A DNA stretch of 18,486 nucleotides from a virus (taxonomy: Duplodnaviria; Heunggongvirae; Uroviricota; Caudoviricetes). Positions 3,332 through 18,486 of the stretch are shown here, piece by piece (the stretch's first letter is position 1; the number at the start of each line of letters is the position of its first letter). A program made the translations under genes and the position numbers. The stretch lies in the IMG/VR virus record IMGVR_UViG_2681813135_000006. One strand, 5' to 3'. The notes below the pieces were generated by a model that worked only from the letters and a program-made list of their open reading frames with translations, did no database searches and was not told where the DNA came from.

Positions 3332-3538
3332 TCACCCCCAGACCTTCTGACGGAGTGACCGCGGCGTACGTTCCTGCCGGTGCGCCTCCGGCAGCCGGGC
3401 GCTGACGGTCCAGGTGACGTAATCGGGATTCAGGCTTCGCTCTACCTTCACGCCGCGGCGCCGGTATTCCGCCATGAGCTCGTCGGCCTGCTGCGTGGTG
3501 CACTCGGTGTGCTGGAACCATGTTTCTTTCATCGGCAT
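3332..3538 (-). CDS. Small hypothetical nin-region protein (about 66-68 aa)
   Basis: ORF in the ninE-equivalent position; candidate starts are GTG 3541, ATG 3538 and ATG 3532, with the upstream gene's TGA overlapping. No recognisable family. Confidence 0.5.
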   Translation of the reverse strand: MPMKETWFQHTECTTQQADELMAEYRRRGVKVERSLNPDYVTWTVSARLPEAHRQERTPRSLRQKVWG

Positions 3539-4137
3539 CACCCCACGAAGCTCATGAGCTGCGCAGCGGCATTATCCGCGTCGCTACGGCTCTTGAATGC
3601 CCTGGACAGGATCCAACGCCACAGAACATCGAGTGCGGCCCTGTAGAGTTGCTGGAACTCGGTTTCGTCCATATTGGCGAAGGCGATGCTGCGGGGGTGT
3701 TTGCGGAGGGTGCCGTCAGGCAGCTGTATCGCGTCGTAGTGGCCGGATTCGATGGTTACCCAGGCGCGGTAGGCGTCGAATGACTTGCAGGCGCTGATGC
3801 TGCCCGTGCGCTTATCAGCGATGCGCTCGAGATATTGCTCAGCGGCATCCAGCAGCGCCCCTTCGTTCCCGCCGTAGGAGGCCAGAAATCTGGCATAGCC
3901 GGTCACCAGCTTGCGTTCGTTGGAAGAGATCGCCCCGCCGGTTGGCTCCCAGTATTCGAACCCGAGGTTTAAAAGCGCGAAGAAGCGGCGGTGGAAAGCC
4001 GGATTGCGGACCTGTTTGAAGTCGGCTACCAGCACGGCGCCGAGTTTGATTTTTGATTGCAGAATATCGCTGGTCTCCGGCGTCGCGGGGATCAGGATTC
4101 CTGATGACTGCTTGATGAGTTGTAGTTCGTGCGCCAT
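3538..4137 (-). CDS. Conserved prophage nin-region protein of about 199 aa (possibly DUF1367-like; tentative)
   Basis: ATG at 4137 with SD GGAGAG 6 nt upstream; long ORF in the same direction as the flanking phage genes. Family assignment is by recall only. Confidence 0.65.
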   Translation of the reverse strand: MAHELQLIKQSSGILIPATPETSDILQSKIKLGAVLVADFKQVRNPAFHRRFFALLNLGFEYWEPTGGAISSNERKLVTGYARFLASYGGNEGALLDAAEQYLERIADKRTGSISACKSFDAYRAWVTIESGHYDAIQLPDGTLRKHPRSIAFANMDETEFQQLYRAALDVLWRWILSRAFKSRSDADNAAAQLMSFVG

Positions 4138-4171: not shown

Positions 4172-4420
4172 TCAGACCGTTGATTTCATATTATCAGAAG
4201 GTTGGGTTACCCGGTAGCCGAGACGGTTAATAAACTGCATAAAACCATTAGGAGTAAAGACCTCTTCATCATCCAGCAAAGGCCGCATAGAAACCATGCC
4301 ATTGACGCGATAAATTAGATGCCTGCCCGATGAAGGAAAGCTAAACACCACGCAGCCGTCAGACCTTCTTACAATGTCATACCAGTTGTCTTCTGACGTT
4401 TGCAAAGCTGAATCACTCAC
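4172..4420 (-). CDS. Hypothetical 82-aa protein downstream of the dinI-like gene
   Basis: GTG start at 4420 with AGGGAG upstream; no family recognised. Confidence 0.45.
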   Translation of the reverse strand: MSDSALQTSEDNWYDIVRRSDGCVVFSFPSSGRHLIYRVNGMVSMRPLLDDEEVFTPNGFMQFINRLGYRVTQPSDNMKSTV

Positions 4421-4537
4421 ATTTATGTTCTCCCTTCGAGCGACTAACAGACGCGATTAAAGATTGTCGGCAGCAGCATCAGAGGGTTACGCAAATTGCG
4501 GTATTCTGAAAAATGCGCGCCAGCCTTAAGCGCAATT

Positions 4538-4771
4538 CTAATAAAACCAGTCGTCAGCGCTTTCCCAGGTATCCTGGAGGATTGATTCAATTTTCTTTTT
4601 ATCGTCCTTGTCACCACCAAAAACACTTAACCCATCGGCCCCGGCACGGCGGATTGTGAGCCTGCAATTGTCATAGTGATCATTCAGGCGCTTAAGCAGT
4701 TCTTTCTCCAGTGCTGGTACTGCGCCTTTAGGAAGTTCTTTCATGCGATCAATGGTTAATTCAACTTTCAT
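4538..4771 (-). CDS. dinI: DinI-like DNA-damage-inducible protein; start re-called to ATG at 4771
   Basis: MKVELTIDR...LSVFGGDKDDKKKIESILQDTWESADDWFY parallels E. coli DinI (MRIEVTI...ISEILQETWESADDWF) by recall. A LexA box lies immediately upstream. Confidence 0.85.
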   Translation of the reverse strand: MKVELTIDRMKELPKGAVPALEKELLKRLNDHYDNCRLTIRRAGADGLSVFGGDKDDKKKIESILQDTWESADDWFY

Positions 4772-4789
4772 AATGGCCCCCATTGCATG

Positions 4790-4809
4790 TACTGTGTTTT
4801 TATACAGTA
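4790..4809. promoter_or_regulatory. LexA (SOS) box, TACTGTGTTTTTATACAGTA, upstream of the dinI-like gene
   Basis: CTGT-N8-ACAG palindrome matching the E. coli consensus TACTGT(AT)4ACAGTA at 16 of 20 positions; 19 nt upstream of the dinI-like ATG and overlapping a plausible -10 region. Confidence 0.75.
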
Positions 4810-4871
4810 TACCTATGCGCGGAAATGATCAACGTTTTAAGAGCACAAATTGTTAATTTTCTGTCAGTTGT

Positions 4872-4899
4872 AAAAAAAGAAAACCCGCCGTAGCGGGTT
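4872..4899 (-). terminator. Rho-independent terminator on the minus strand
   Basis: Minus-strand RNA AACCCGC-UACG-GCGGGUU (perfect 7-bp stem) followed by UUCUUUUUUUU. Confidence 0.7.
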
Positions 4900-5262
4900 G
4901 AATTAGCAGTGTTATATTAAGCGGCAATTTCTTTCTGCCGGCACAATCCCGAGAGATTCGCCCTCTGTATCGCATCATCAATGAGCACCTGTATGACCAT
5001 GAGGCAAAGCGTTATCCAACTTGCATTCATCTTTTTCAATCAGCAAAGGAGTGGTTAGTGCTGTGAGTGGGCTTTGTTCACTTCATGGTAGATAAATCAG
5101 CTATGGATAAGTGATAAGAGGTGAAATCAATCCGAATTAACAACCTGAAGCACATTAATCGGAACACAGATATTAAAATCCTAAAGTCTAGTAACAAATA
5201 GCCGATATGAGATATTGCTTATCAGTTTAAAAATCATCTATTGAAAAAATGGGGGGGAGGCG

Positions 5263-5826
5263 TTGAAGCGAGTAGAGCGCGATTTTATCTGTCTGTTTAA
5301 TTGTGTGTGGTATCAAGATTTCCCTGTGTTCAAAGGTGAATATATCAACCGTTCCAACTGGACCATTCATGTTGGCCTGGTCATGCGCGAGTGTGCAAAG
5401 TTAATGGGCGCAAGAACATTTTTTGAACAAGGCGGGCGTACCGATGCGGTCCTACAATATCCAGACAATCAAATTTTAACCTATGTTGAGTGGGAGTATA
5501 ATCAGGCAGACAGAGATAGCGTTAACGAGTTAGACAAACTGCTTGAAAAAAACGACAAGTGCTATTTCTCCACATTCATCTCATATTGTCAGCATGAAAA
5601 CATCAATATTGTTATTGAAAAAGCAAGTAGAATATGGAGTGAAGCAAGCAGGCCTTTGATTTTTTTTCTTATCACCTATGAGCCTCAAACGAAAAAACGC
5701 CGCCATTTTTTAGAACTCAGAACTTATTTTTTCTCAAACGGCAAAAGAAAACTAGTTCGCAAACAACCTGCGCTTCCATGGGATATTGAGCAACGAAAAT
5801 ACAATGTCGAAGAAGATGCAGGATAG
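5263..5826 (+). CDS. Hypothetical 187-aa protein encoded in an AT-rich island on the opposite strand to the flanking phage operon (candidate moron/accessory gene)
   Basis: TTG start at 5263 immediately after a very strong SD (GGGGGGGAGG at 5251-5260). Visibly AT-rich coding sequence. No TM segment or family recognised. Confidence 0.6.
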   Translation: MKRVERDFICLFNCVWYQDFPVFKGEYINRSNWTIHVGLVMRECAKLMGARTFFEQGGRTDAVLQYPDNQILTYVEWEYNQADRDSVNELDKLLEKNDKCYFSTFISYCQHENINIVIEKASRIWSEASRPLIFFLITYEPQTKKRRHFLELRTYFFSNGKRKLVRKQPALPWDIEQRKYNVEEDAG

Positions 5827-6049
5827 AAGAGACATAAGGTTTTCACGACAGTCTCGTTCCGAGCCCTAACTAAAATATTCTGTTCGGAGCAACCAAATAG
5901 CTCTGGCTTTGCTGTGACCATGTTCGCGGTACCAACGCCTCTCTAGGTCCGCTTCTCGCTCATGGTGGACCAAAATCAAATCTAAAATGACGTGGCTAAG
6001 CGGGAGTACATAGTGAATGACAGGATGCTCCGGGCAGCACCATACTAAT

Positions 6050-6247
6050 TCAGTTCCCGTCAGAGGTAGGCGTTGCTTCATGATGGGATGAGCGCTCCCT
6101 CCAGACAATCCATGCGACAGCCGCCTCCCATGATATATATCCATTACCGCCATTTTTCGCTCTGCGGAGATTAACTGCATCACCAAACCTTTCAATGATG
6201 AATTTTTCAAATTCTATGCGTTTTTCTTCGTCGATTGTTGAATCCAT
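6050..6247 (-). CDS. Hypothetical small acidic protein (65 aa); may be the 5' part of a frameshifted gene continuing in another frame to 5866
   Basis: ATG at 6247 preceded by GGGGAAGG. The ORF-track entry 5866..6210 overlaps it in a second frame. Confidence 0.35.
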   Translation of the reverse strand: MDSTIDEEKRIEFEKFIIERFGDAVNLRRAKNGGNGYISWEAAVAWIVWRERSSHHEATPTSDGN

Positions 6248-6464
6248 ACCTTCCCCAGAAGAGTCCTACGAATCGCTCTTATTGCATAAAAAATAGCATA
6301 TACAATAGAGAGTGAAAAACCGACGTAGCGGGTTAACTTTATGTTACTCATGAGTCTTGTCTCGCTGCGACTTAAAAGCGGAACATTCTCGCGCAAGTTG
6401 CGTTGCTAAAGCTACGGGGTTGAATGGCTCTCCATGCCCATTTAAGAAGGCATGCGGTGTGTAG

Positions 6465-6493
6465 TTGAACGTTATTTAAAACACAGATAGAAT
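6465..6493 (+). promoter_or_regulatory. Putative sigma70 promoter for the secreted-protein gene
   Basis: -35 TTGAAC (6465-6470), 17-bp spacer, -10 TAGAAT (6488-6493), about 30 nt upstream of the ATG at 6527. Confidence 0.35.
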
Positions 6494-6526
6494 CAAGAAA
6501 AATCCTAAATAAATGGAATATTGTTT

Positions 6527-6907
6527 ATGGCTAAGAAAATCGCATTACTGGGCTTTTCTGCTCTTTTTGTTGCAAGTGTTGCTTTTGCTGAAACGACAAG
6601 TAACTGGGTTGAGGTTACTACAGCTGATGATGGCATTTTTTCAGCAAAAAAAGGCACATTTAGAAATGTAAAAGGTGATTCATCTGCCTTGTTCATGTAT
6701 CAAACAAAAAATAAAAAAGTAGAGTACTACAAAGTTAGTATTAAAGATGCCGACTGTGATAGTGGATATGGGGAGATAAGATTCTTCTATATGGATGGGA
6801 AATTAGCTTTCAAAGGTGATTATGTTGCTGATGGGAACAGTGTTGGCGCAGGTATTGGTGATTTTATGTGTGGAGTCAGAATTGGACTTAACACACAAAA
6901 AAGTTAA
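6527..6907 (+). CDS. Secreted/periplasmic protein of unknown function (126 aa, Sec signal peptide, 2 Cys)
   Basis: From ATG 6527: MAKKIALLGFSALFVASVAFA followed by ETT, a typical signal peptide with an AXA cleavage motif. Mature part is Gly/Asp/Lys-rich with two Cys. AT-rich; the TTG at 6521 in the ORF track is probably not the start. Confidence 0.7.
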   Translation: MAKKIALLGFSALFVASVAFAETTSNWVEVTTADDGIFSAKKGTFRNVKGDSSALFMYQTKNKKVEYYKVSIKDADCDSGYGEIRFFYMDGKLAFKGDYVADGNSVGAGIGDFMCGVRIGLNTQKS

Positions 6908-7321
6908 ATGAGGGGCATTTGTTAAAAAACAATAGCCCCACATTAGATCAATATTGGCTCCGGCATTTCTGGATAAAAGCTTCTATGCTACGGCGCTCAT
7001 AGCGAACAATCTTAGCGCTGAACTTTACACGGGGCCAATGTAGACCGGTGTCGGTGTTCTGTATTCCATTTACATAATGTTTTTTGCGTAATTCCCAGCT
7101 TCTGGCATACCTCGCCCGGAGTGAGGAGATCATCAGGTTGCTCAGTCATGTTATGCCTCGCTGTTATCTGGGGTGATGATTAGCAGCTTCCAGATGGCTG
7201 AGACATACATAGCCTGATGTTTCGCATCGACTAGGGCATTATGCATGTCACCTTCAAACGGCATGTCCCGAGTTCTCCCTTTTCGCCGCTTTCGCGTCGC
7301 ATATTCTCCAAACGGTATTTA

Positions 7322-7879
7322 TCAATCATTACTGTTATCCTCGCAGTAGTAGTGCCGTCCCTCTGGGTCAGTAGATACATGTCCGCAGATATCGCATTCA
7401 ATTCCAGGAAGCACCGATTCTGACTGCGCTTTGATATGCAGTCGCGGTTCACCGTCTTTCGGCTCTGGCCACTGGCGGTTTTTGTTAACCGCCAGCTTTT
7501 CTACCATCGCCAGGGTAATCTGCTTATCACTGATACCGGCACGACGTTGCGCATCCCATAACAGGAATTGCATGTCAGCCCATTCGCTCATCTCGTCTGG
7601 TTCCGCAGCAGCCTCGATAGCTTCTTTGGAAAGGTGCTTCAGCGGACCAACTGGACCGACATCGCCGAATGTTTCATCTGACCATGCTGCATGTTCACAG
7701 CGTACCTGCTCACGGGCTATCGACTCCAGAACCCCATCAATCACCTTCACTGCATCAGCCATTGCGTAGCCGAGATTACCGCCGTCGCTTTGTGCTGCTG
7801 CTTTGCTGAGTATTTCGCGTATCTGGTGCAAGCGATCAAGTGATACAGGACCGTGCGCCGGGTGGTTGTTAGTTGTCAT
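7322..7879 (-). CDS. DUF550-like prophage protein (dATP/dGTP pyrophosphohydrolase-like; tentative)
   Basis: 185-aa ORF with ATG at 7879; about 4 nt after the stop of the upstream small gene. Family by recalled similarity to conserved lambdoid prophage proteins. Confidence 0.6.
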   Translation of the reverse strand: MTTNNHPAHGPVSLDRLHQIREILSKAAAQSDGGNLGYAMADAVKVIDGVLESIAREQVRCEHAAWSDETFGDVGPVGPLKHLSKEAIEAAAEPDEMSEWADMQFLLWDAQRRAGISDKQITLAMVEKLAVNKNRQWPEPKDGEPRLHIKAQSESVLPGIECDICGHVSTDPEGRHYYCEDNSND

Positions 7880-8282: not shown

Positions 8283-8617
8283 GCTGGCATCCTCCCCACG
8301 ATATCTATAACCCGACGCATAACCGCACTTCCCCGAAAATCTGCTGGTAACTCAATCAGAGGCTTACTCGAACCGTATGAGAATCGTTGGAGATCGAAAT
8401 CAATTACAGCCTTTGGGTCCCTGAACAAATCTAGACGACCGTAACGAATGAGTTCGCCGCGTTCGGCTGCTACGCGGAAATACTTCTCAGCAGTCTGACG
8501 ATGCAGCGACAACATCTGTGATGCCTCGCTAACGGTTAAGCGTCCACGGATTTTCACCTCTTCGATGATCACCCGGATAAGTGCCGCCTGCTCTTCTGGT
8601 GTATTTGGTCTTGGCAT
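8279..8617 (-). CDS. Hypothetical HTH-containing protein immediately downstream of the O-like gene
   Basis: ATG at 8617, 2 nt after the O-like TAA, with GGGGG SD; helix-turn-helix-like stretch LTVSEASQMLSLHRQTAEKYFRVAAERGELIRYGR. Confidence 0.6.
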   Translation of the reverse strand: MPRPNTPEEQAALIRVIIEEVKIRGRLTVSEASQMLSLHRQTAEKYFRVAAERGELIRYGRLDLFRDPKAVIDFDLQRFSYGSSKPLIELPADFRGSAVMRRVIDIVGRMPA

Positions 8618-8619
8618 GC

Positions 8620-9531
8620 TTACCCCCTGAATCCGGGTGGGATTGTTTTGTCTGGCTCAGAAATGCGGTTCACATCCCTGCCCGTTTTGCGAGCGTTGAG
8701 AGCGAACTTCGGTTTAAACAGTCCCTGGTACCCGTTGGCGATACTGGTGTTGATCACATCAACGGGGTCATGCCCAGCGTCCAGGCAAGCCTTGAGCAAC
8801 TTGAATGCTTTGGTGACCGTCATTTCGGTCTTGATGGCTTTGCCAGACTGTTGGCGGTAGGCCACCCACTCACTCCAGGACACAGAATCAAGCCACTCAG
8901 GAACGGGAATCGTCAGCGGGTCAAACTTACCCTTCCCCTTTGGGGGATTAGAGGGGGTTAGATCTGTATTTATATTTGTATTTGGAAGAATGTCTTTGGT
9001 GTTCCCTGTTTTCAGGGATACCTCTCCCTGTTTTTGGGGATGGTTATCCCCGTTTTCAGGGATGATTGAAGGGGTAAAATTGCTATCCCTGAATTCAGGG
9101 ATGGTAATAACCCATGTGACAACTTCAGCAGCAGGAAACACCGCTGGACACTTCATGCAATTTGGCTTGGTATACGCCCATTTATCCAGGCTGGTATTAA
9201 TCCCTATGTATCTGGTTTGCCCAATGCGGCGCAGGATGATGATGTTCCGATAGGCAAGGCTCAACACGGCTTCAGAGACGTGTTTCACCTTCAGCGTCGT
9301 TTTATCTGCAATGAGGCTATTGGCGATGCGGTCAGAACTCTTAGACCAGCCATAGGTCAGACGAACGATAGCATTCAGCACCCGGAACTCGCGCCCGGAT
9401 AGTTCGACGATACACAGGGCATCCTGAATCTGGTTGGCCAGGCGCAAATAGCCTTTCTCCAGTTCAGCCATGCTGCTCTCCTGTTTCCCCTGCTGTGTGG
9501 GGAATTTGAATATTTCAGCGGTATTTGACAT
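8620..9531 (-). CDS. Lambda O-like replication initiator; start re-called to ATG at 9531
   Basis: N-terminus MSNTAEIFKFPTQQ...EKGYLRLAN...REFRVLNAIVRLTYGWSKSSDRIANS parallels lambda O (MTNTAKILNF...DGYARLSN...RQFKVLLAILRKTYGWNKPMDRITDS) by recall. Iterons and an AT-rich tract lie inside the gene. SD GGAGAA 5 nt upstream of the ATG. Confidence 0.85.
   Translation of the reverse strand: MSNTAEIFKFPTQQGKQESSMAELEKGYLRLANQIQDALCIVELSGREFRVLNAIVRLTYGWSKSSDRIANSLIADKTTLKVKHVSEAVLSLAYRNIIILRRIGQTRYIGINTSLDKWAYTKPNCMKCPAVFPAAEVVTWVITIPEFRDSNFTPSIIPENGDNHPQKQGEVSLKTGNTKDILPNTNINTDLTPSNPPKGKGKFDPLTIPVPEWLDSVSWSEWVAYRQQSGKAIKTEMTVTKAFKLLKACLDAGHDPVDVINTSIANGYQGLFKPKFALNARKTGRDVNRISEPDKTIPPGFRG
9003..9105. 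repeat. Replication origin iterons: four roughly 18-19 bp palindromic repeats (TCCCTG...CAGGGAT type) inside the O-like gene, with an AT-rich tract at about 8961-8990
   Basis: tccctgttttcagggata (9003), tccctgtttttggggatgg (9025), tccccgttttcagggatga (9047), tccctgaattcagggatgg (9087). Spacing is 22, 22 and 40 bp. Resembles lambda ori iterons, with the AT-rich region downstream in the direction of O transcription. Confidence 0.7.
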
Positions 9532-9615
9532 ACTGTTCTCCGCAATTACGCACAGTTTTTGCACCTGAAAGCCGTTGGTGTTCGAGCACCGCGGCTTTCG
9601 CCATTTCTGAGCCCG

Positions 9616-10184: not shown

Positions 10185-10403
10185 CTACTTTGGTAATCCG
10201 TCAGTGGGATTTGGATAGAGATCAGGGCGCAGCTCGTGGGGGGTTACGCCTGTCATTTTGAAAATCGGGAAGATATAGCTTGGCGGGACGATCCCTTGGT
10301 CACGATTCTTCCAATGACTTACAGACATACTCGTCACACCAAGCGCGATGCTGAGCTTTCTGGCAGAGCCAGCGGCTTTAATTGCTTTATCGAGTGCGGA
10401 CAT
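10185..10403 (-). CDS. Cro/YdaS-like HTH regulator (72 aa), divergent from the repressor
   Basis: ATG at 10403 with AGGAG 6 nt upstream. HTH-like KAAGSARKLSIALGVTSMSVSHWKN. Position and size match cro/ydaS in an immunity region. Confidence 0.75.
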   Translation of the reverse strand: MSALDKAIKAAGSARKLSIALGVTSMSVSHWKNRDQGIVPPSYIFPIFKMTGVTPHELRPDLYPNPTDGLPK

Positions 10404-12604: not shown

Positions 12605-12742
12605 CGAAAACCCCGCGCAAGGCGAGATTCACGTCCGGTGCCACCGACCAAAGTTACACCGGAATTTATACCAAACCAAAAAACATCCAATGGGCGCTAT
12701 CTCTGGCCCGGGGATTCTAACACTCAAAAAAGAGGATCTCAC

Positions 12743-15652
12743 ATGGAATTTTTCCATCTGATAAAAGCCAGTCAGAAGTCTGGCAAGAAAGATGCAGTGA
12801 TTTGGTTCACTGCGAAAAGTGTAGCGCGCGCCAATCTCCAACTCGATGTGGCACTGGAAGAAGCCGGAATTGAAGAAACTGGCCGCGGTAAAGATTATGC
12901 CAAACCAATCCGCACCGATTTCCCGGTATATGACGACCTGCCGGAAGAAGGCGCAGTGGATTACACCTGGTGCAAACGCTACGAACTGCAGAACGATGAC
13001 CGCACCTGGATGCCAAAAGTCACAGCTGAAAACTCTGACGAGAAAACGGCTCAGACCGTTGATAGTCACATAACTACTGAGTCAACGCTGCCAGAAACCG
13101 CTGGCATCACGCTGGACGAACACGACGACGACTCAACCCTCTACCCGGTAGTGCAGATGCCGTTTCGTAAGCAACTGCTTTCCCAGTTCACCGCCGACGA
13201 ACTGCGCCACCACGTAACCCGCGAAGAGTACGAAGCTATCGGCGCGCTGGAGATGGACACTGATAACAGTTACGTCCAGAACTTGCTGTTAGCTGCTGAG
13301 AACTGCCCGGACGTGAAGGGTTACGACACCAAAGACCTGTGGCGCTACACCGATGCCATTCGCAAAGTGTTCAGCCAGGACAAGCGTCACGAACTCGCGC
13401 TGGTACTCCGTTTCACCAGAATGTGGGCGGCGACTGATTACATTGACCGTGGCATCCTGGCGCGTGAATGGGCTGCCGGTAATCACATCAGTAGTGTTCA
13501 GCGTACTGATTCCGGAACCAATGCCAACGGCGGTTACGTCACTGACCGTGGACCTGATGCATACCATACCCTTGACACTCTCGATTTAGAGATTGCATGT
13601 GCCCTTCTGCCTATGGACTTCAACCACTTCGAGATCCCGGGCAGCATTCTTCGTCGCGCTAAAGAAATCGTGACCAAAAAAGAAGAACCGTGGAAATCAT
13701 GGAGCAGCATTCTGCGCAATCAACCCGGCGTTCTTGGCGTTAACCGCACAGCTATTTTTAACCTGATACGTATCGCGCCGGAAAATATTCATCTAACTCC
13801 TGTCGCTCACCTGGAGTTTGTTAACCGGACCATGACTGCTGCGTTTAATGCTGCTGTTGAGTTATTGCCATTGCATGAAGCTGAGCCCGCAACACAGGAA
13901 ATTCCCCAACCTGAAAGTAAGGAGTCTCCACGCAAACCCTTCTGCACTCACGAAGAGAACCTGCAACGCGTACGTGAAGAAGAAGCACGCCGCCGCGCAG
14001 AGGAAGCGACAGCACAACCACATAAAGCCGAACAAGAACTGGTTAAAAATGTCGGCAACGGAATATTCGATGTTACGGCTTTACTGCAGAACTCAGCAAC
14101 TCATGGCACGAAACAGGCTACGGAAACCACCAGCAATGTGCAGGTTCAAGAAACTGTCAGTGATGAAAAAAATGTTGGTAATGAAATGCAGTCAGGCGAA
14201 AGCAGTCTGGAAACTGGTGAAGAGTCACATCCCGGCCAGCAGGCCGATGTAAACCAAAATACGGAATCTGTCGCTCAAAATAGCGATTCTGTAAACCAGA
14301 CTGAACCAGTTTTGGCACACGTCGAGCCAGAGGCGCAATCTGACGAACAAGCTGTTTTTTACCCCGATTACTTCGAGCCTGGGCGCTATGAAGGTCTGCC
14401 GAACGAGGTTTACCACGCTGCCAACGGCATCAGTTCCACCCAGGTAAAAGATGCGCGCGTTTCGCTGATGTACTTCAATGCGCGCCACGTTGAGAAAACC
14501 ATCGTCAAAGAGCGCTCCTCAGTGCTGGACATGGGAAACCTGGTACATGCGCTGGCGTTGCAGCCAGAACAGCTCGATGAAGAATTTAGCGTTGAACCCG
14601 TAATTCCGGAAGGTGCATTTACCACCACGGCAACGATCCGCGCGTTTATTGATGAGTACAACGCCAGCCTGCCAGCGCAACTGAGCGCAGACGATATCAA
14701 AGCTTTGCTGGATGAATACAACGCCACCCTGCCAGCGCTGGTGCCGCTGGGCGCTAGCCTGGATGAAACGGCGCAGAACTATATGGCGCTGCCAGCTGAA
14801 TTCCAACGTATCGATGCAGATCAGAAGAAGACAGCAACAGCAATGAAGGCGTGCATCAAAGAGTACAACGCCACCCTGCCAGCGCAGATTAAAACCAGCG
14901 GCAGCCGCGACGCACTACTCGAACAACTTGCGATTATCAATCCTGACCTGGTCGCGCAGGAAGCTCAGAAGCTGCAACCGCTGAAAGTCTCTGGCACGAA
15001 GGCCGATCTGATTCAGGCCGTGAAGGCAGTCAAACCAGATGCAGTGTTCGCCGACGAGCTGCTCGATGCGTGGCGCAACAACCCGGAAGGGAAAGTGCTG
15101 GTTACCCACCAGCAACTTGCCACCGCGCAGGCAATTCAGTCAGCACTGCTCTCGCACCCGACCGCAGGCATGCTGCTAACCCACCCGAGCCGCGCCGTTG
15201 AGGTGAGCTACTTTGGCTTTGACGAGGAGACGGGACTGGAAGTTCGTGTGCGCCCTGACCTTGAGATCGACCTAGACGGCGTGCGTATCGGTGCTGACCT
15301 GAAAACCATCAGCATGTGGAATGTTAAGCAGGAAAGCCTGCGCGCCAGGCTACACCGGGAAATTATTGAACGTGATTATCACCTGAGCGCGGCTATGTAC
15401 TGCGAAACCGCAGCGCTGGATCAGTTCTTCTGGATTTTCGTCAACAAAGACGAGAACTACCACTGGATCGCCATCATCGAGGCATCCGCTGAACTACTGG
15501 AGCTGGGTATGCTCGAGTACCGCAAAGCGATGCGCAATATCGCAACCGGATTCGACACAGGTGAATGGCCAGCGCCAATCACTGCTGACTACACCGACGA
15601 ACTGAACGACTTCGACCTGCGCCGCCTTGAAGCGCTGCGTACTCAGGCATAA
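12743..15652 (+). CDS. recE: RecE-like exonuclease (exodeoxyribonuclease VIII family), 969 aa; start re-called to ATG at 12743
   Basis: N-terminus MEFFHLIKASQKSGKKDAVIWF...FPVYDDLPEEGAVDYTWCKRYEL parallels recalled E. coli RecE. Long acidic/Gln-rich middle region. C-terminal region (YFGFDEETGLEVRVRPDLEIDLDGVRIGADLKTI...) is consistent with the RecE nuclease domain. SD AGAGGA 6 nt upstream of the ATG. Confidence 0.85.
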   Translation: MEFFHLIKASQKSGKKDAVIWFTAKSVARANLQLDVALEEAGIEETGRGKDYAKPIRTDFPVYDDLPEEGAVDYTWCKRYELQNDDRTWMPKVTAENSDEKTAQTVDSHITTESTLPETAGITLDEHDDDSTLYPVVQMPFRKQLLSQFTADELRHHVTREEYEAIGALEMDTDNSYVQNLLLAAENCPDVKGYDTKDLWRYTDAIRKVFSQDKRHELALVLRFTRMWAATDYIDRGILAREWAAGNHISSVQRTDSGTNANGGYVTDRGPDAYHTLDTLDLEIACALLPMDFNHFEIPGSILRRAKEIVTKKEEPWKSWSSILRNQPGVLGVNRTAIFNLIRIAPENIHLTPVAHLEFVNRTMTAAFNAAVELLPLHEAEPATQEIPQPESKESPRKPFCTHEENLQRVREEEARRRAEEATAQPHKAEQELVKNVGNGIFDVTALLQNSATHGTKQATETTSNVQVQETVSDEKNVGNEMQSGESSLETGEESHPGQQADVNQNTESVAQNSDSVNQTEPVLAHVEPEAQSDEQAVFYPDYFEPGRYEGLPNEVYHAANGISSTQVKDARVSLMYFNARHVEKTIVKERSSVLDMGNLVHALALQPEQLDEEFSVEPVIPEGAFTTTATIRAFIDEYNASLPAQLSADDIKALLDEYNATLPALVPLGASLDETAQNYMALPAEFQRIDADQKKTATAMKACIKEYNATLPAQIKTSGSRDALLEQLAIINPDLVAQEAQKLQPLKVSGTKADLIQAVKAVKPDAVFADELLDAWRNNPEGKVLVTHQQLATAQAIQSALLSHPTAGMLLTHPSRAVEVSYFGFDEETGLEVRVRPDLEIDLDGVRIGADLKTISMWNVKQESLRARLHREIIERDYHLSAAMYCETAALDQFFWIFVNKDENYHWIAIIEASAELLELGMLEYRKAMRNIATGFDTGEWPAPITADYTDELNDFDLRRLEALRTQA

Positions 15653-15657
15653 GGGGA

Positions 15658-16776
15658 ATGATGATGGAAAACACGAATATCGTAACCGCTGAACAGCAGA
15701 CTCCAAACACGATCTCAGCCAGCAATGCCATTTTCAACGTGCAGGCTTTAACCCAGCTTCAGTCTGTCGCCGGGTTGATGGCACAGGCAGCCGTAACGGT
15801 GCCTGAGCACCTCCGCGGCAATCCGGCAGACTGCATGGCCATCATCATGCAGGCGATGCAGTGGGGTATGAACCCTTACGCCGTGGCGCAAAAGACGCAC
15901 CTGGTTAACGGTGTCCTGGGATACGAAGCGCAACTGGTTAATGCGGTGATCTCCAGCTCAAACGCCATCGTTGGCCGCTTTCACTATGAGTACGAGGGCG
16001 ACTGGTCGAAATGTGCCAGCAGCCGCGAGATAACCGTTAAAAAGCCTGCGAAAGGTGGCGGGACGTACGACAAGAAAGAAATGGTACGCGGTTGGGAAAG
16101 TGCTGATGAACAAGGACTGTCGGTACGGGTAGGTGCCGTTATTCGCGGTGAAAGTGATATCACCTGGGGAGAGCCTGTTTTCCTCTCCAGCGTAATCACA
16201 CGTAATTCTCCACTTTGGGTATCAAACCCGAAACAGCAGATCGCTTATCTGGCACTCAAATACTGGGCGCGCCTGTATTGCCCTGCAGTTGTTCTTGGTG
16301 TGTACACCCCTGATGAGATTGAACAGCGCACAGAAAAAGAGATCAACCCAACGCCGCAACGCGTTAGCCTGGCTGATATCTCAGGTGACACCGTCACAAC
16401 CACGCAAAGCGCACAGGAATCGTCGGTAAATGTCGACTCTCTTGCCGATGATTTCCGCGAACGCATCGAATCTGCTCAGGACGTGGATAGCGCCAAATCG
16501 CTGCGTGCCGACATTGAAACGGCGAAAGCTACGCTGGGATCCGCACTATTCACCGAGCTGAAAAACAAAGCCGTAAAGCGTTATTACCTAGTGGATGCAC
16601 GCAACAAGGTTGAGGAGGCTATTAAATCCCTGCCCCAGCCCGACGAGCCGCATGCATCCGAACGGTTCGCTGAAGCCGAGCGCATGCTTGCATCTTCAAA
16701 GCGTCACTTAGGCGATGAACTGCACGATCAATTCAGCATCACCCTGGCGGATATGAAACCGGAATACGTGGCCTGA
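15658..16776 (+). CDS. ssDNA annealing protein of the Redbeta/RecT family, with a long C-terminal extension (372 aa if from the first ATG)
   Basis: Begins 6 nt after the recE-like stop. ADCMAIIMQAMQWGMNPYAVAQKTHLV and SPLWVSNPKQQIAYLALKYWARLYCPAVVLGVY parallel lambda Beta motifs (QYGLNPWTKEIYAF; PKRMLRHKAMIQCARLAFGFAGIY) by recall. Three consecutive ATGs at 15658-15666; the exact start is uncertain. Confidence 0.75.
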   Translation: MMMENTNIVTAEQQTPNTISASNAIFNVQALTQLQSVAGLMAQAAVTVPEHLRGNPADCMAIIMQAMQWGMNPYAVAQKTHLVNGVLGYEAQLVNAVISSSNAIVGRFHYEYEGDWSKCASSREITVKKPAKGGGTYDKKEMVRGWESADEQGLSVRVGAVIRGESDITWGEPVFLSSVITRNSPLWVSNPKQQIAYLALKYWARLYCPAVVLGVYTPDEIEQRTEKEINPTPQRVSLADISGDTVTTTQSAQESSVNVDSLADDFRERIESAQDVDSAKSLRADIETAKATLGSALFTELKNKAVKRYYLVDARNKVEEAIKSLPQPDEPHASERFAEAERMLASSKRHLGDELHDQFSITLADMKPEYVA

Positions 16777-17098: not shown

Positions 17099-17296
17099 AT
17101 GGATGATATTTTGGTAACGTCAGACCTGACCAGTCGCTACAAAATTTCACGCAAAACCCTTTGGTCATGGCAAAGTGCAGACACAATGCCTCGGGGCTTC
17201 GTATGCCCGTTCCCACCCCCTGACTGGCCCGGCAACCCTAACCGCTGGCGCTCTGAGTCAATCAAAGAGTGGGAGGATAAAAAGAAGATAAATTAA
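17099..17296 (+). CDS. AlpA-family small DNA-binding protein (excisionase/regulator-like), about 65 aa
   Basis: From ATG 17099 (SD GGAGAG): [34 protein letters not shown]...[13 protein letters not shown] resembles AlpA-type HTH proteins by recall. The TTG at 17054 in the ORF track is probably not the start. Confidence 0.65.
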
Positions 17297-18486
17297 CTGA
17301 AGGGCTCTCCGATGATCTCTTCAAGATGGCTCTGCCAAACGCGGAGCCAGTGTTTCTGATCATCGATATAGTCATGAAGGTTGTAATGCGCCATAACCCC
17401 CACCATCTGATGCCCGAGCAGCTTTTCAATTACGTGCGGCGGGCAACCTAACTCAGAGAGATTTGTGGCTATCGTCCGCCTCATATCATGAAGCGACCAC
17501 TCTGCCATACCTGTTCCATTCCAAATAGAACGGGCGTAATTGGATGCCACAGGTGAATGAACGGGCGAATCTTTGATCCCGCCATCAATTTTACGTTGTG
17601 AAGTCACCAGGTGATTGGTGTTTATTTTCTTGAGGTGATTTCTGACCAGGTTAACGGCGGCGTCTGAGAGTCCCCTTCTAATATGTACCCGAGTTTTATA
17701 ACTGCCCGCAGGCACGACCCACTCATTATCATCCAATCGAAACCATGATCTCTCACTAAGTCGAATCTCAGCCGTACGGCATCCGGTAAGCATAATAAAT
17801 TTCACCAGGAAAACGGACTCTATCGACATATGGCTTTTCAACCACTGATAGATTTTGCGCAGATCGTCATCGTCCATCCTGCGAGTTCTCTTTTTAGGCT
17901 TTTGCCCGACATCAGATGGCAGTAATCCCTCGAGTGGGTTTGAGGCGATCACACTTCTGTTAACGCAGAACCTAAAGGCCCGTTTGCACAGCGAAAGCAT
18001 GTAATGAGCCATCACCCTGCTTTCTATAGAATCGAAGACGTTGATCCAGTGCATTTTCGCTGTGTTATCGACTTTGACATTCTTCATCGGTTCGGCGATA
18101 TGTTTCTCAAACACCTGGCGATAGTAATCGACTTTAACTAGCCCGTTAGCGATACAGTGCCTTTCAATCCAGTAATTGAACGCTTCGGCAACGGACATCG
18201 CTTCCTGTCGGGTCTGCTTATCCAGCTTCACCTGCTCTCGCGGATCCAGTCCCTCAGTTAACCAGTTTCTGAATTGTTGGCGACGCTCTCTTGCCTGGGT
18301 GATACTCATTGCAGGATAATCACCAACATTGAGTTTTACCGCTTTACCGGCCCAGCGATACCGATAGAAAAATGATATTTTTCCGGCCTGGCTGATTCTG
18401 GCGTTGAGCCCGTGCGAATCAGAAATAATCTCGATATCATCTCTTTTCTTGCCGAGCGCCTTCCTGAGCTTTGTGTCGGTGATCAT
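17293..18486 (-). CDS. int: Tyrosine site-specific integrase (P4/CP4-57-like), 397 aa; start codon at the window edge
   Basis: ATG at 18486-18484. Integrase-like N-terminal region and a C-terminal catalytic region containing HDMRRT...LLGHQ...AHYNLHDY (R/H/Y catalytic residues of tyrosine recombinases). Confidence 0.9.

Follow-up and report, generated by a model that had tools for sequence, protein, structure and literature searches.

A Predicted PD-(D/E)xK-Fold Protein With a BamHI-Type Acidic Tetrad, Encoded by a Single-Gene Cassette in a Rac-Like Prophage of Escherichia coli

Introduction

PD-(D/E)xK nucleases are well known as a kind, and solitary genes resembling those of restriction endonucleases (REs) have already been catalogued; a distant methyltransferase was predicted for 57 of 272 such genes (Ershova et al., 2012, PMC3488263). 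Among REs, BamHI carries the acidic catalytic tetrad E77/D94/E111/E113 and OkrAI the tetrad E71/D86/E99/E101; according to the description of OkrAI, the only other enzymes known to have glutamate as the last of these residues are BtsCI and the isoschizomers of BamHI (PMC3025578). Here, we describe a 187-codon gene found in 18,486 nucleotides of Caudoviricetes DNA (IMG/VR record IMGVR_UViG_2681813135_000006; this whole stretch is called the window below), which correspond to a Rac-like lambdoid prophage of Escherichia coli. The gene is carried by a cassette of its own, and its product is predicted to have a restriction-endonuclease fold with a conserved acidic tetrad of the BamHI type.

Like the catalogued solitary genes, this gene of predicted RE fold has no adjacent methyltransferase. 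However, the former were recognized by similarity to REBASE (PMC3488263), whereas the family described here has no sequence similarity to any characterized enzyme. With 187 aa, the protein is close in size to the type IIP enzymes of the BamHI/OkrAI/BstYI/BglII group (194-213 aa; 213 for BamHI, 194 for OkrAI). As in BamHI and OkrAI, its predicted PD-(D/E)xK core shows an E, D, ExE pattern on three consecutive strands. In contrast, the first glutamate and the aspartate are separated by 6 residues here vs. 15-17 in these two enzymes. The protein also differs from BamHI-type enzymes by two motifs of its own, WYxDFP and QPALPW, and by the lack of a linked methyltransferase: none is encoded in the window or within about 3.5-8 kb of the gene in the other contexts examined, so that a type II restriction-modification (R-M) system with the usual adjacent methyltransferase is not supported.

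The Gene and Its Family

The gene lies on the plus strand (Table 1) and starts with a TTG codon. An in-frame TGA occurs at 5242-5244 and no ATG, GTG or TTG is found between this stop codon and position 5263; hence, no start other than the TTG can account for the conserved N-terminus. This start is supported by the homologues, whose alignment begins at residue 1 (MKRxERDF), and the RefSeq annotation, produced by the Prokaryotic Genome Annotation Pipeline, gives identical coordinates (WP_170973743.1). A first-pass annotation of the window had already proposed a 187-aa open reading frame (ORF) starting with TTG and running antisense to the phage operon. Both proposals stand, the flanking dinI gene, 65-aa remnant and DUF550 gene being on the minus strand. 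It had also described the product as an orphan, a description that has to be abandoned after the search for homologues and their neighbourhoods that it had itself called for.

A word-indexed search returned 34 clusters (90% identity), which share 52-96% identity with the query. An exhaustive search of 1.84 billion representatives with a hidden Markov model returned 183 clusters (50% identity) with E ≤ 1e-3, including 37 with E ≤ 1e-30; nearly all have 185-215 aa and match from end to end. Carriers are many Pseudomonas species, Pantoea, Massilia/Duganella (Oxalobacteraceae), metagenome-assembled genomes (MAGs) of Dehalococcoidia, and one MAG of Bathyarchaeia. Pairwise ratios of nonsynonymous to synonymous substitution rates (dN/dS, Nei-Gojobori) vs. 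four enteric alleles are 0.053-0.063, with dS values of 0.30-1.72. Because dN/dS is low and the family is broad, a spurious ORF is excluded and the gene is a real, selected protein-coding gene.

The members of the family are labelled “hypothetical” in every source. No model from Pfam, NCBIfam, PHROGs or PADLOC matches the protein, and PADLOC gives no match even at E ≤ 1. Comparing Pfam with 49 family members, and with longer, possibly fused members, did not reveal any family. Likewise, searches of PDB sequences with both profiles gave nothing at E ≤ 10, a tblastn search of 50,697 phage records gave no match, and no mention was found in a literature search for the protein accession numbers. The family is unclassified, unmodelled in every library tried, and rides phage, plasmid, island and integrative and conjugative element (ICE) backbones; its proteins are very small, with a rare ExE site and no partner.

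Some copies are truncated (L035, L052, and P0114). In P0114 (234 aa), an HsdM N-terminal domain is fused to the C-terminal 69 residues of the family, probably as the result of a deletion in a locus where a family gene stood beside a type I R-M system. A further hit with 15 partial matches, P0097 (1950 aa), proved to be the translation of a tandem repeat with GRTDIVLSYPDE in it and was discarded as a false positive.

Predicted Fold and Putative Active Site

An AlphaFold2 model calculated from the 34-sequence alignment is of good confidence, with a mean predicted local distance difference test score (pLDDT) of 85.6 and a predicted template modelling score (pTM) of 0.84. The model is a globular alpha/beta domain, in keeping with the absence of transmembrane segments stated in the first-pass annotation. 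It contains helices 3-15, 30-47, 89-99 and 111-125 and strands 51-53, 62-65, 71-81, 102-110, 132-142, 146-158 and 161-169. The segment running from the helix that starts at residue 30 to strand 102-110 forms the alpha-beta-beta-beta-alpha-beta core of PD-(D/E)xK nucleases. The two best structural matches are BamHI and OkrAI, and the closest folds are type IIP enzymes, including BstYI, together with NucC and HamA; many other REs, YaeQ, CdiA-CT toxins, Can2, McrC and SduA follow. The Foldseek comparison of the model with the PDB, also suggested beforehand, agrees at the level of the superfamily, with YaeQ on top (E 5e-5), EcoRV lower, and TM-scores of about 0.3-0.45. A Foldseek search of BFVD gave nothing below 1e-3.

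In a 49-sequence alignment reaching down to 26% identity, invariance is limited to P21, E55, E76 and E78, and D61, H36, W77 and E89 are conserved in at least 90% of the sequences. In the superfamily signature, core strand 2 starts with D and core strand 3 contains (D/E)-x-(K/E/Q); here, D61 is located just before strand 62-65 and E76-x-E78 is inside strand 71-81. From the hairpin register, E55, D61, E76 and E78 should align across the sheet. As modelled, the protein shows a restriction-endonuclease fold with a BamHI-type conserved acidic tetrad. The first-pass annotation had reported no recognizable motif and had overlooked this fold and the motif E55...D61...E76-x-E78; it was right, on the other hand, to judge the NIVIEK stretch (residues 115-120) insufficient for a PD-(D/E)xK assignment, this stretch being part of helix 111-125 and not conserved in the wide alignment. 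Two further conserved motifs are specific to the family, WYxDFP in the N-terminal part and QPALPW in the C-terminal part.

The resemblance to BamHI is one of fold plus pattern, not of sequence homology. Indeed, comparison of the family profile with BamHI and OkrAI using hhalign gave a probability of 0.9%, without detectable sequence homology. The only aligned piece, WYRDFP vs. WYREKP, was considered as a link between the family and BamHI/OkrAI and rejected: it lacks significance, and position 19 varies.

Other proteins with related folds can be set apart from the family in a similar way. NucC, the cA3-activated effector nuclease of CBASS and type III CRISPR systems, is larger (about 240 aa) and needs a cyclic-oligonucleotide synthase; here, no PADLOC model matches at E ≤ 1, and no CD-NTase or CRISPR genes are found nearby in the contexts examined. 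HamA, from the Hachiman system, needs the HamB helicase, whereas the window shows no helicase neighbour and the protein no PADLOC match. SduA (Shedu) is a protein of about 400 aa with extra domains, and again PADLOC gives no match. YaeQ is closer in format, as it is a PD-(D/E)xK-like protein of about 175-180 aa encoded by a solitary gene in Proteobacteria and is the top PDB match; however, the Pfam YaeQ model is unmatched in all 49 members at E ≤ 1, so that the likeness is only at the fold level. As for Mrr-like type IV enzymes, Mrr_cat reached only E 0.12, in one of the 49 members, and the PADLOC mREase_IV model does not match. Finally, a type II toxin-antitoxin pair would include a second gene, and neither a conserved neighbour nor a conserved antisense ORF is present.

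A Mobile Single-Gene Cassette

The gene is contained in a cassette with sharp borders. When the window is compared using blastn with L011-L013, enterobacterial loci in which the gene lies in a chromosomal island near cysS/folD, 86% identity is found over the cassette only, with no homology beyond; the coding sequence (CDS) is 94% identical and its flanks 71-75%. In one case, its neighbours are genes for a P4-type integrase, for a primase and for HsdR (type I). In sister prophages having the same dinI and nin genes, the insert is absent and dinI leads almost directly to the replication genes, the dinI-proximal slot holding no more than a fragment of Dcm or a small gene for a hypothetical protein. 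This slot is variable, since sister prophages without the insert carry other small contents in it. The gene has the features of an accessory insert: it is placed between conserved phage genes, is missing from sister prophages, and has a low GC content. It lies in an island of about 40% GC with flanks of 50-60%, the GC content being 37-44% across 4500-7000 vs. 50-63% in the phage backbone. Among 5426 complete E. coli genomes, only ES7, PSJ-22 and NCTC11023 contain the stretch 4400-7300 at >99% identity.

No second component of the cassette was found. An antisense ORF overlapping the gene (5724-5921) is broken in other alleles and was rejected as a partner because it is not conserved. The leader, as read in alignment A2, contains no small conserved ORF, and an Rfam scan of the cassette and of the whole window detected no family. 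As candidate transcription signals, the cassette has only a -10-like hexamer and a hairpin without U-tract (Table 1).

In L012, direct repeats of 23 nt, TCCGCTCTGTGCCAnnAGCGGAC (7792-7814 and 8726-8748), enclose the cassette; they are 91% identical and each able to form a hairpin. A third, degenerate copy at the 3' edge of the cassette is the hairpin of the window. These repeats may be elements of the repetitive extragenic palindromic (REP) kind or recombination sites used in cassette movement.

Table 1. Positions of the cassette, its gene and the other features of the window.
Feature	Position	Strand	Remarks
Mobile cassette, ~914 bp	5058-5971	+	~205 nt leader, CDS, ~145 nt tail; delimited by blastn
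187-codon gene	5263-5826	+	TTG start at 5263; stop codon 5824-5826
-10-like hexamer TAAAAT	5228-5233	+	TACAAT in L012 allele (alignment A2); possible own promoter, weak, no good -35
G-rich Shine-Dalgarno GGGGGGGAGG	5251-5260	+	GGGGGGG 5251-5257, GGAGG 5256-5260, then CG; GGAGG core ends 2 nt 5' of TTG; anti-SD dG -11.3 kcal/mol
E55 codon	5425-5427	+	End of core strand 1; putative metal ligand
D61 codon	5443-5445	+	Start of core strand 2; putative metal ligand
E76-W77-E78 codons, ExE motif	5488-5496	+	Core strand 3 (71-81); pattern counterpart of BamHI E111-x-E113
Hairpin, 8-bp stem, no U-tract	5946-5971	+	dG -13.1 kcal/mol; 3' cassette edge; related to L012 repeats
Q	1716-2546	-
NinB/DUF1367	3538-4137	-
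dinI	4538-4783	-
LexA box TACTGTGTTTTTATACAGTA	4790-4809		Directly upstream of dinI
Intrinsic terminator AACCCGCTACGGCGGGTT + T-run	4882-4899	-	Strong
65-aa remnant	6050-6247	-	Matches only positions 94-143 of PHROG_660
Promoter-like TTGAAC-17-TAGAAT	6465-6493		Just 5' of the accessory ORF
Second accessory ORF	6527-6907	+	126 aa by RefSeq
Exoribonuclease pseudogene fragment	~7151-7270	-	3'-5' exoribonuclease; RefSeq annotation
DUF550	7322-7879	-
Replication gene	8620-9564	-
cro	10185-10403	-
RecE	12638-15652
RecT	15658-16776
Integrase	17293-18486	-

Genomic Neighbourhoods of the Homologues

A conserved partner was sought across 33 loci and none was found. A scan of 149 neighbouring ORFs from 23 contexts showed scattered defence genes and many ordinary metabolic genes. 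The defence genes are DarT/DarG, Mrr-type IV enzymes, PDC-M53A/B, dynamin-like GTPases, HNH and SIR2; PDC-M53A/B is located 1.7 kb downstream of the family gene in P. putida QH1. Further surroundings related to defence or to mobile elements include dynamin-like LeoBC, HsdR with a P4-like integrase, an Abi_2-like protein and the HsdM_N fusion remnant. In a Pantoea plasmid, the copy is found among ICE genes, beside an integrase and an Abi_2-like protein.

Some local arrangements recur. In two Pseudomonas megaplasmids, pQBR57 (L053 3433-9654) and that of P. aeruginosa H15 (L054 3311-9893), the order is Crp/Fnr regulator, ERCC4-domain nuclease, recA, hypothetical gene, family member, gene for a 287-aa hypothetical protein, and gene for a DUF4942 protein of about 570 aa. 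In P. bharatica, P. cedrina and two MAGs (L029-L032, about 8555-9229, plus strand), an ORF of about 222 codons without Pfam family directly adjoins the family gene at its stop codon. Pseudomonas sp. 14P_8.1_Bac3 (L023 8558-10226, plus strand) has two genes for dynamin-like GTPases, which follow the family gene with overlapping stop and start codons. The 222-codon ORF and the dynamin-like GTPase genes may be lineage-specific operon partners, neither being general. Two other candidate associations were discarded. A DarTG pair beside L027 was rejected, the ORFs there encoding a metallophosphoesterase, an unknown protein and a KilA-N protein. A two-gene module was rejected as well, the window ORF 6521-6907 (128 aa, plus strand) being unrelated to the cytochrome c-like gene (127 aa) that follows the family gene in Pseudomonas.

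Possible Functions

On the basis of the model, the protein is probably an active nuclease of the PD-(D/E)xK superfamily. It would be a small, stand-alone, two-metal DNA endonuclease with E55, D61, E76 and E78 in its active site, a glutamate replacing the usual lysine. Its self-contained cassette of about 0.9 kb is inserted backwards in the variable slot beside dinI. Because it is self-contained and reversed in its slot, the gene is probably expressed in the lysogen from its own signals, as a moron. With its conserved, weak TTG start, the gene would yield little of a nuclease that could damage its own cell. Since no methyltransferase, antitoxin or sensor partner was found, the discrimination between host and substrate must lie in the specificity of the enzyme itself, which would spare its own cell by recognizing, for example, a base modification, a rare site or a structural feature of DNA. 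For the host, cleavage of incoming phage or plasmid DNA would be the most likely benefit. That the protein is a stand-alone metal-dependent DNA endonuclease, carried as a moron and cutting incoming DNA, is the statement that we favour, and we regard it as evenly balanced. It is supported by the low dN/dS, by the position of the conserved tetrad on consecutive strands, by the accessory and mobile character of the gene, by the retention of TTG in the enteric alleles, and by the location of some homologues in defence or mobile-element islands. Taken separately, a role in defence or exclusion is put forward tentatively. More speculative, and somewhat doubtful, is the idea of a BamHI-like, two-metal immunity nuclease that would work as a single gene without methyltransferase, protect lysogens and the hosts of ICEs and plasmids, and have its expression held low by the TTG. 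The same degree of doubt applies to the idea that, in such an immunity system, self and non-self would be told apart by the substrate, that is, by hypermodified phage bases, a rare site, or a replication or packaging intermediate.

Several observations weigh against the favoured statement. Many homologues are located among housekeeping genes, which is atypical for defence genes. The site used in the P. fluorescens group is syntenic across several species, between a short-chain dehydrogenase/reductase (SDR) gene and the cytochrome c-like gene near bphOP, and the Dehalococcoidia copies adjoin CoA-transferase, NfeD and radical-SAM genes. In pQBR57 and the H15 megaplasmid, the gene belongs to a block with recA and an ERCC4 nuclease. 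E55/D61/E76/E78 are equated with the BamHI tetrad from their pattern and strand position in the model, no PADLOC model matches the protein, and a consensus scan of the plus strand upstream of the gene found no full sigma-70 promoter, nor was an intrinsic terminator found for the gene. The main rival explanation starts from the plasmid block: the protein would be a recombination or repair nuclease of mobile elements, acting on flaps, junctions or stalled forks with RecA, ERCC4/XPF-like nucleases, NinB, RusA or RecET. This would also suit the nin-region location of the gene in the window, by SOS-regulated dinI with its LexA box, NinB/DUF1367 and RusA, with RecE and RecT further along. The stable synteny in several Pseudomonas species suits a cellular role, and many PD-(D/E)xK families are repair enzymes (PMC3424549). 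However, the gene itself has no LexA box upstream, runs opposite to the recombination genes, and came in on a separate cassette. Moreover, the recA/ERCC4 linkage holds in two of six plasmid matches, the other contexts checked being without it, and the best structural neighbours are type II REs, NucC and HamA rather than Hjc, RecU, MutH, Vsr or RecB-type nucleases. We consider a repair function unlikely.

The mobility of the cassette raises another possibility, that of a selfish, free-standing homing-type endonuclease that would cut cassette-free loci and have the cassette copied in during repair. A compact single-gene cassette with sharp homology borders, present in a prophage and in unrelated islands, would fit such an element, as would the hairpin-like direct repeats flanking the L012 copy, the insertion between conserved phage genes and by gene remnants, and the truncated copies L035, L052 and P0114. 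It is nevertheless improbable, given a strong and uniform purifying selection (dN/dS about 0.06) even at a dS of 1.7 and a long-term synteny in Pseudomonas that is unlike the gain-decay cycle of homing genes; in addition, the insertion sites are wholly different between contexts, no common target is evident, and the phage records searched with tblastn contain no match. An AbiEii or Abi_2-like gene nearby in two plasmids could rather point to a toxin or an abortive-infection effector acting on RNA or host DNA and restrained by an unrecognized antitoxin or activator. This is quite improbable in view of the lack of a conserved adjacent small ORF (the antisense ORF being broken in other alleles), of an Rfam RNA in the cassette or window, of a conserved neighbour across the 23 contexts, and of a CD-NTase, any other signal generator or a PADLOC match. 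Lastly, a type II RE could rely on an unlinked methyltransferase or be protected by a housekeeping methylase of its host. The closest folds are indeed type IIP enzymes of similar size (BamHI, OkrAI, and BstYI), and solitary RE genes with distant methyltransferases are documented (57 of 272 predicted, PMC3488263). Against this, there is no methyltransferase in the window or around the contexts examined, a cassette moving alone would be lethal on arrival in hosts without the needed methylase, and the carriers span Gammaproteobacteria, Betaproteobacteria, Chloroflexota and an archaeon. To our knowledge, no housekeeping methylase is common to these four groups of carriers, and we regard this explanation as very improbable.

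If the protein is an active nuclease, it would define a family of about 180 clusters not classified before, distributed over Proteobacteria, Chloroflexota and one archaeon. With its restriction fold, the enzyme would be very small and would persist in cells lacking a protective methylase. Understanding how it spares host DNA could add a single-gene defence or exclusion mechanism to those of prophage morons, provide a new cleavage specificity as a tool, and open another, independent lineage for studies of the ExE two-metal site, in which glutamate replaces lysine and which is essentially known from BamHI and the isoschizomers of BamHI. If the protein is a repair nuclease or an inert relic, it would be an ordinary addition to a very large superfamily.

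Translation Signals and Their Variation

The first-pass annotation had singled out the G-rich Shine-Dalgarno (SD) sequence as unusually strong and had linked non-ATG starts with very strong SDs to tightly regulated toxic or defence genes; such a role would fit a putative solitary nuclease whose weak start codon is conserved. Its predicted duplex with the anti-SD sequence is strong, but not unique, as three other genes of the window reach -10.7 to -11.4 kcal/mol, and the single G7 run of the window (1.38 expected) is not above chance. The 2-nt gap between GGAGG and TTG is below the usual spacing. Because of this short gap, a normally spaced SD contact would need the G-run, with G-U wobble. The GGGGGGGAGG tract is the same in the three E. 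coli genomes and is not found in the other enteric alleles, the nearest of which have GAGG-6 nt-TTG (L011-L013), AAGGA-7 nt-TTG (L014) or AAGGAGGT-4 nt-TTG (Pantoea wallisii, L017). The G-rich SD is specific to the E. coli allele and is not a feature of the family. Phase variation of the G7 tract was also considered and discarded, the length of the tract being constant across the three E. coli genomes. The TTG start itself is kept in all five enteric alleles, even at a dS of about 1.7, and the Pseudomonas alleles and the Pantoea sp. Mb-10 allele start with ATG.

No LexA box is found upstream of the nuclease-fold gene. LexA control of this gene was ruled out, as the sole LexA box of the window lies at dinI. 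At the other end of the gene, the NCTC11023 allele (L016 1064-1669) has lost one A from the run CGAAAATAC, at about window position 5796. This loss shifts the frame of the last ~10 residues and yields a protein of 201 aa; the change falls within the C-terminal tail of the model, which has low confidence.

Setting in the Prophage

The early-right operon is on the minus strand and the nuclease-fold gene, on the plus strand, is antisense to it. The order on the minus strand is cro, a YdaT-like gene, a replication gene, DUF977, DUF550, dinI, NinB/DUF1367, DUF1364, RusA and Q, followed by the holin, lysozyme and Rz genes. The opposite side of the prophage carries a cI-like repressor, RecE, RecT and the integrase. 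At the left end of the window, within the Rz/lysis region, 10 N at 120-129 correspond to an assembly gap or to masking, and the corresponding DUF2570 gene of ES7 is marked as incomplete in RefSeq.

The LexA box of dinI is near-consensus and is the only CTGT-N8-ACAG of the window. Just upstream of it, the minus-strand intrinsic terminator separates dinI from the variable region. Two gene remnants are found by the accessory ORFs, the 65-aa fragment and the exoribonuclease pseudogene fragment, which suggests repeated illegitimate insertions into the dinI-proximal slot.

This region contains a second reversed accessory ORF, which has the lowest GC content of the window (about 37%). It has no match in Pfam, PHROGs, PADLOC or NCBIfam. 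The encoded protein begins with a clear Sec signal peptide, MAKKIALLGFSALFVASVAFA/ETT, and may be a secreted or periplasmic lysogenic-conversion factor.

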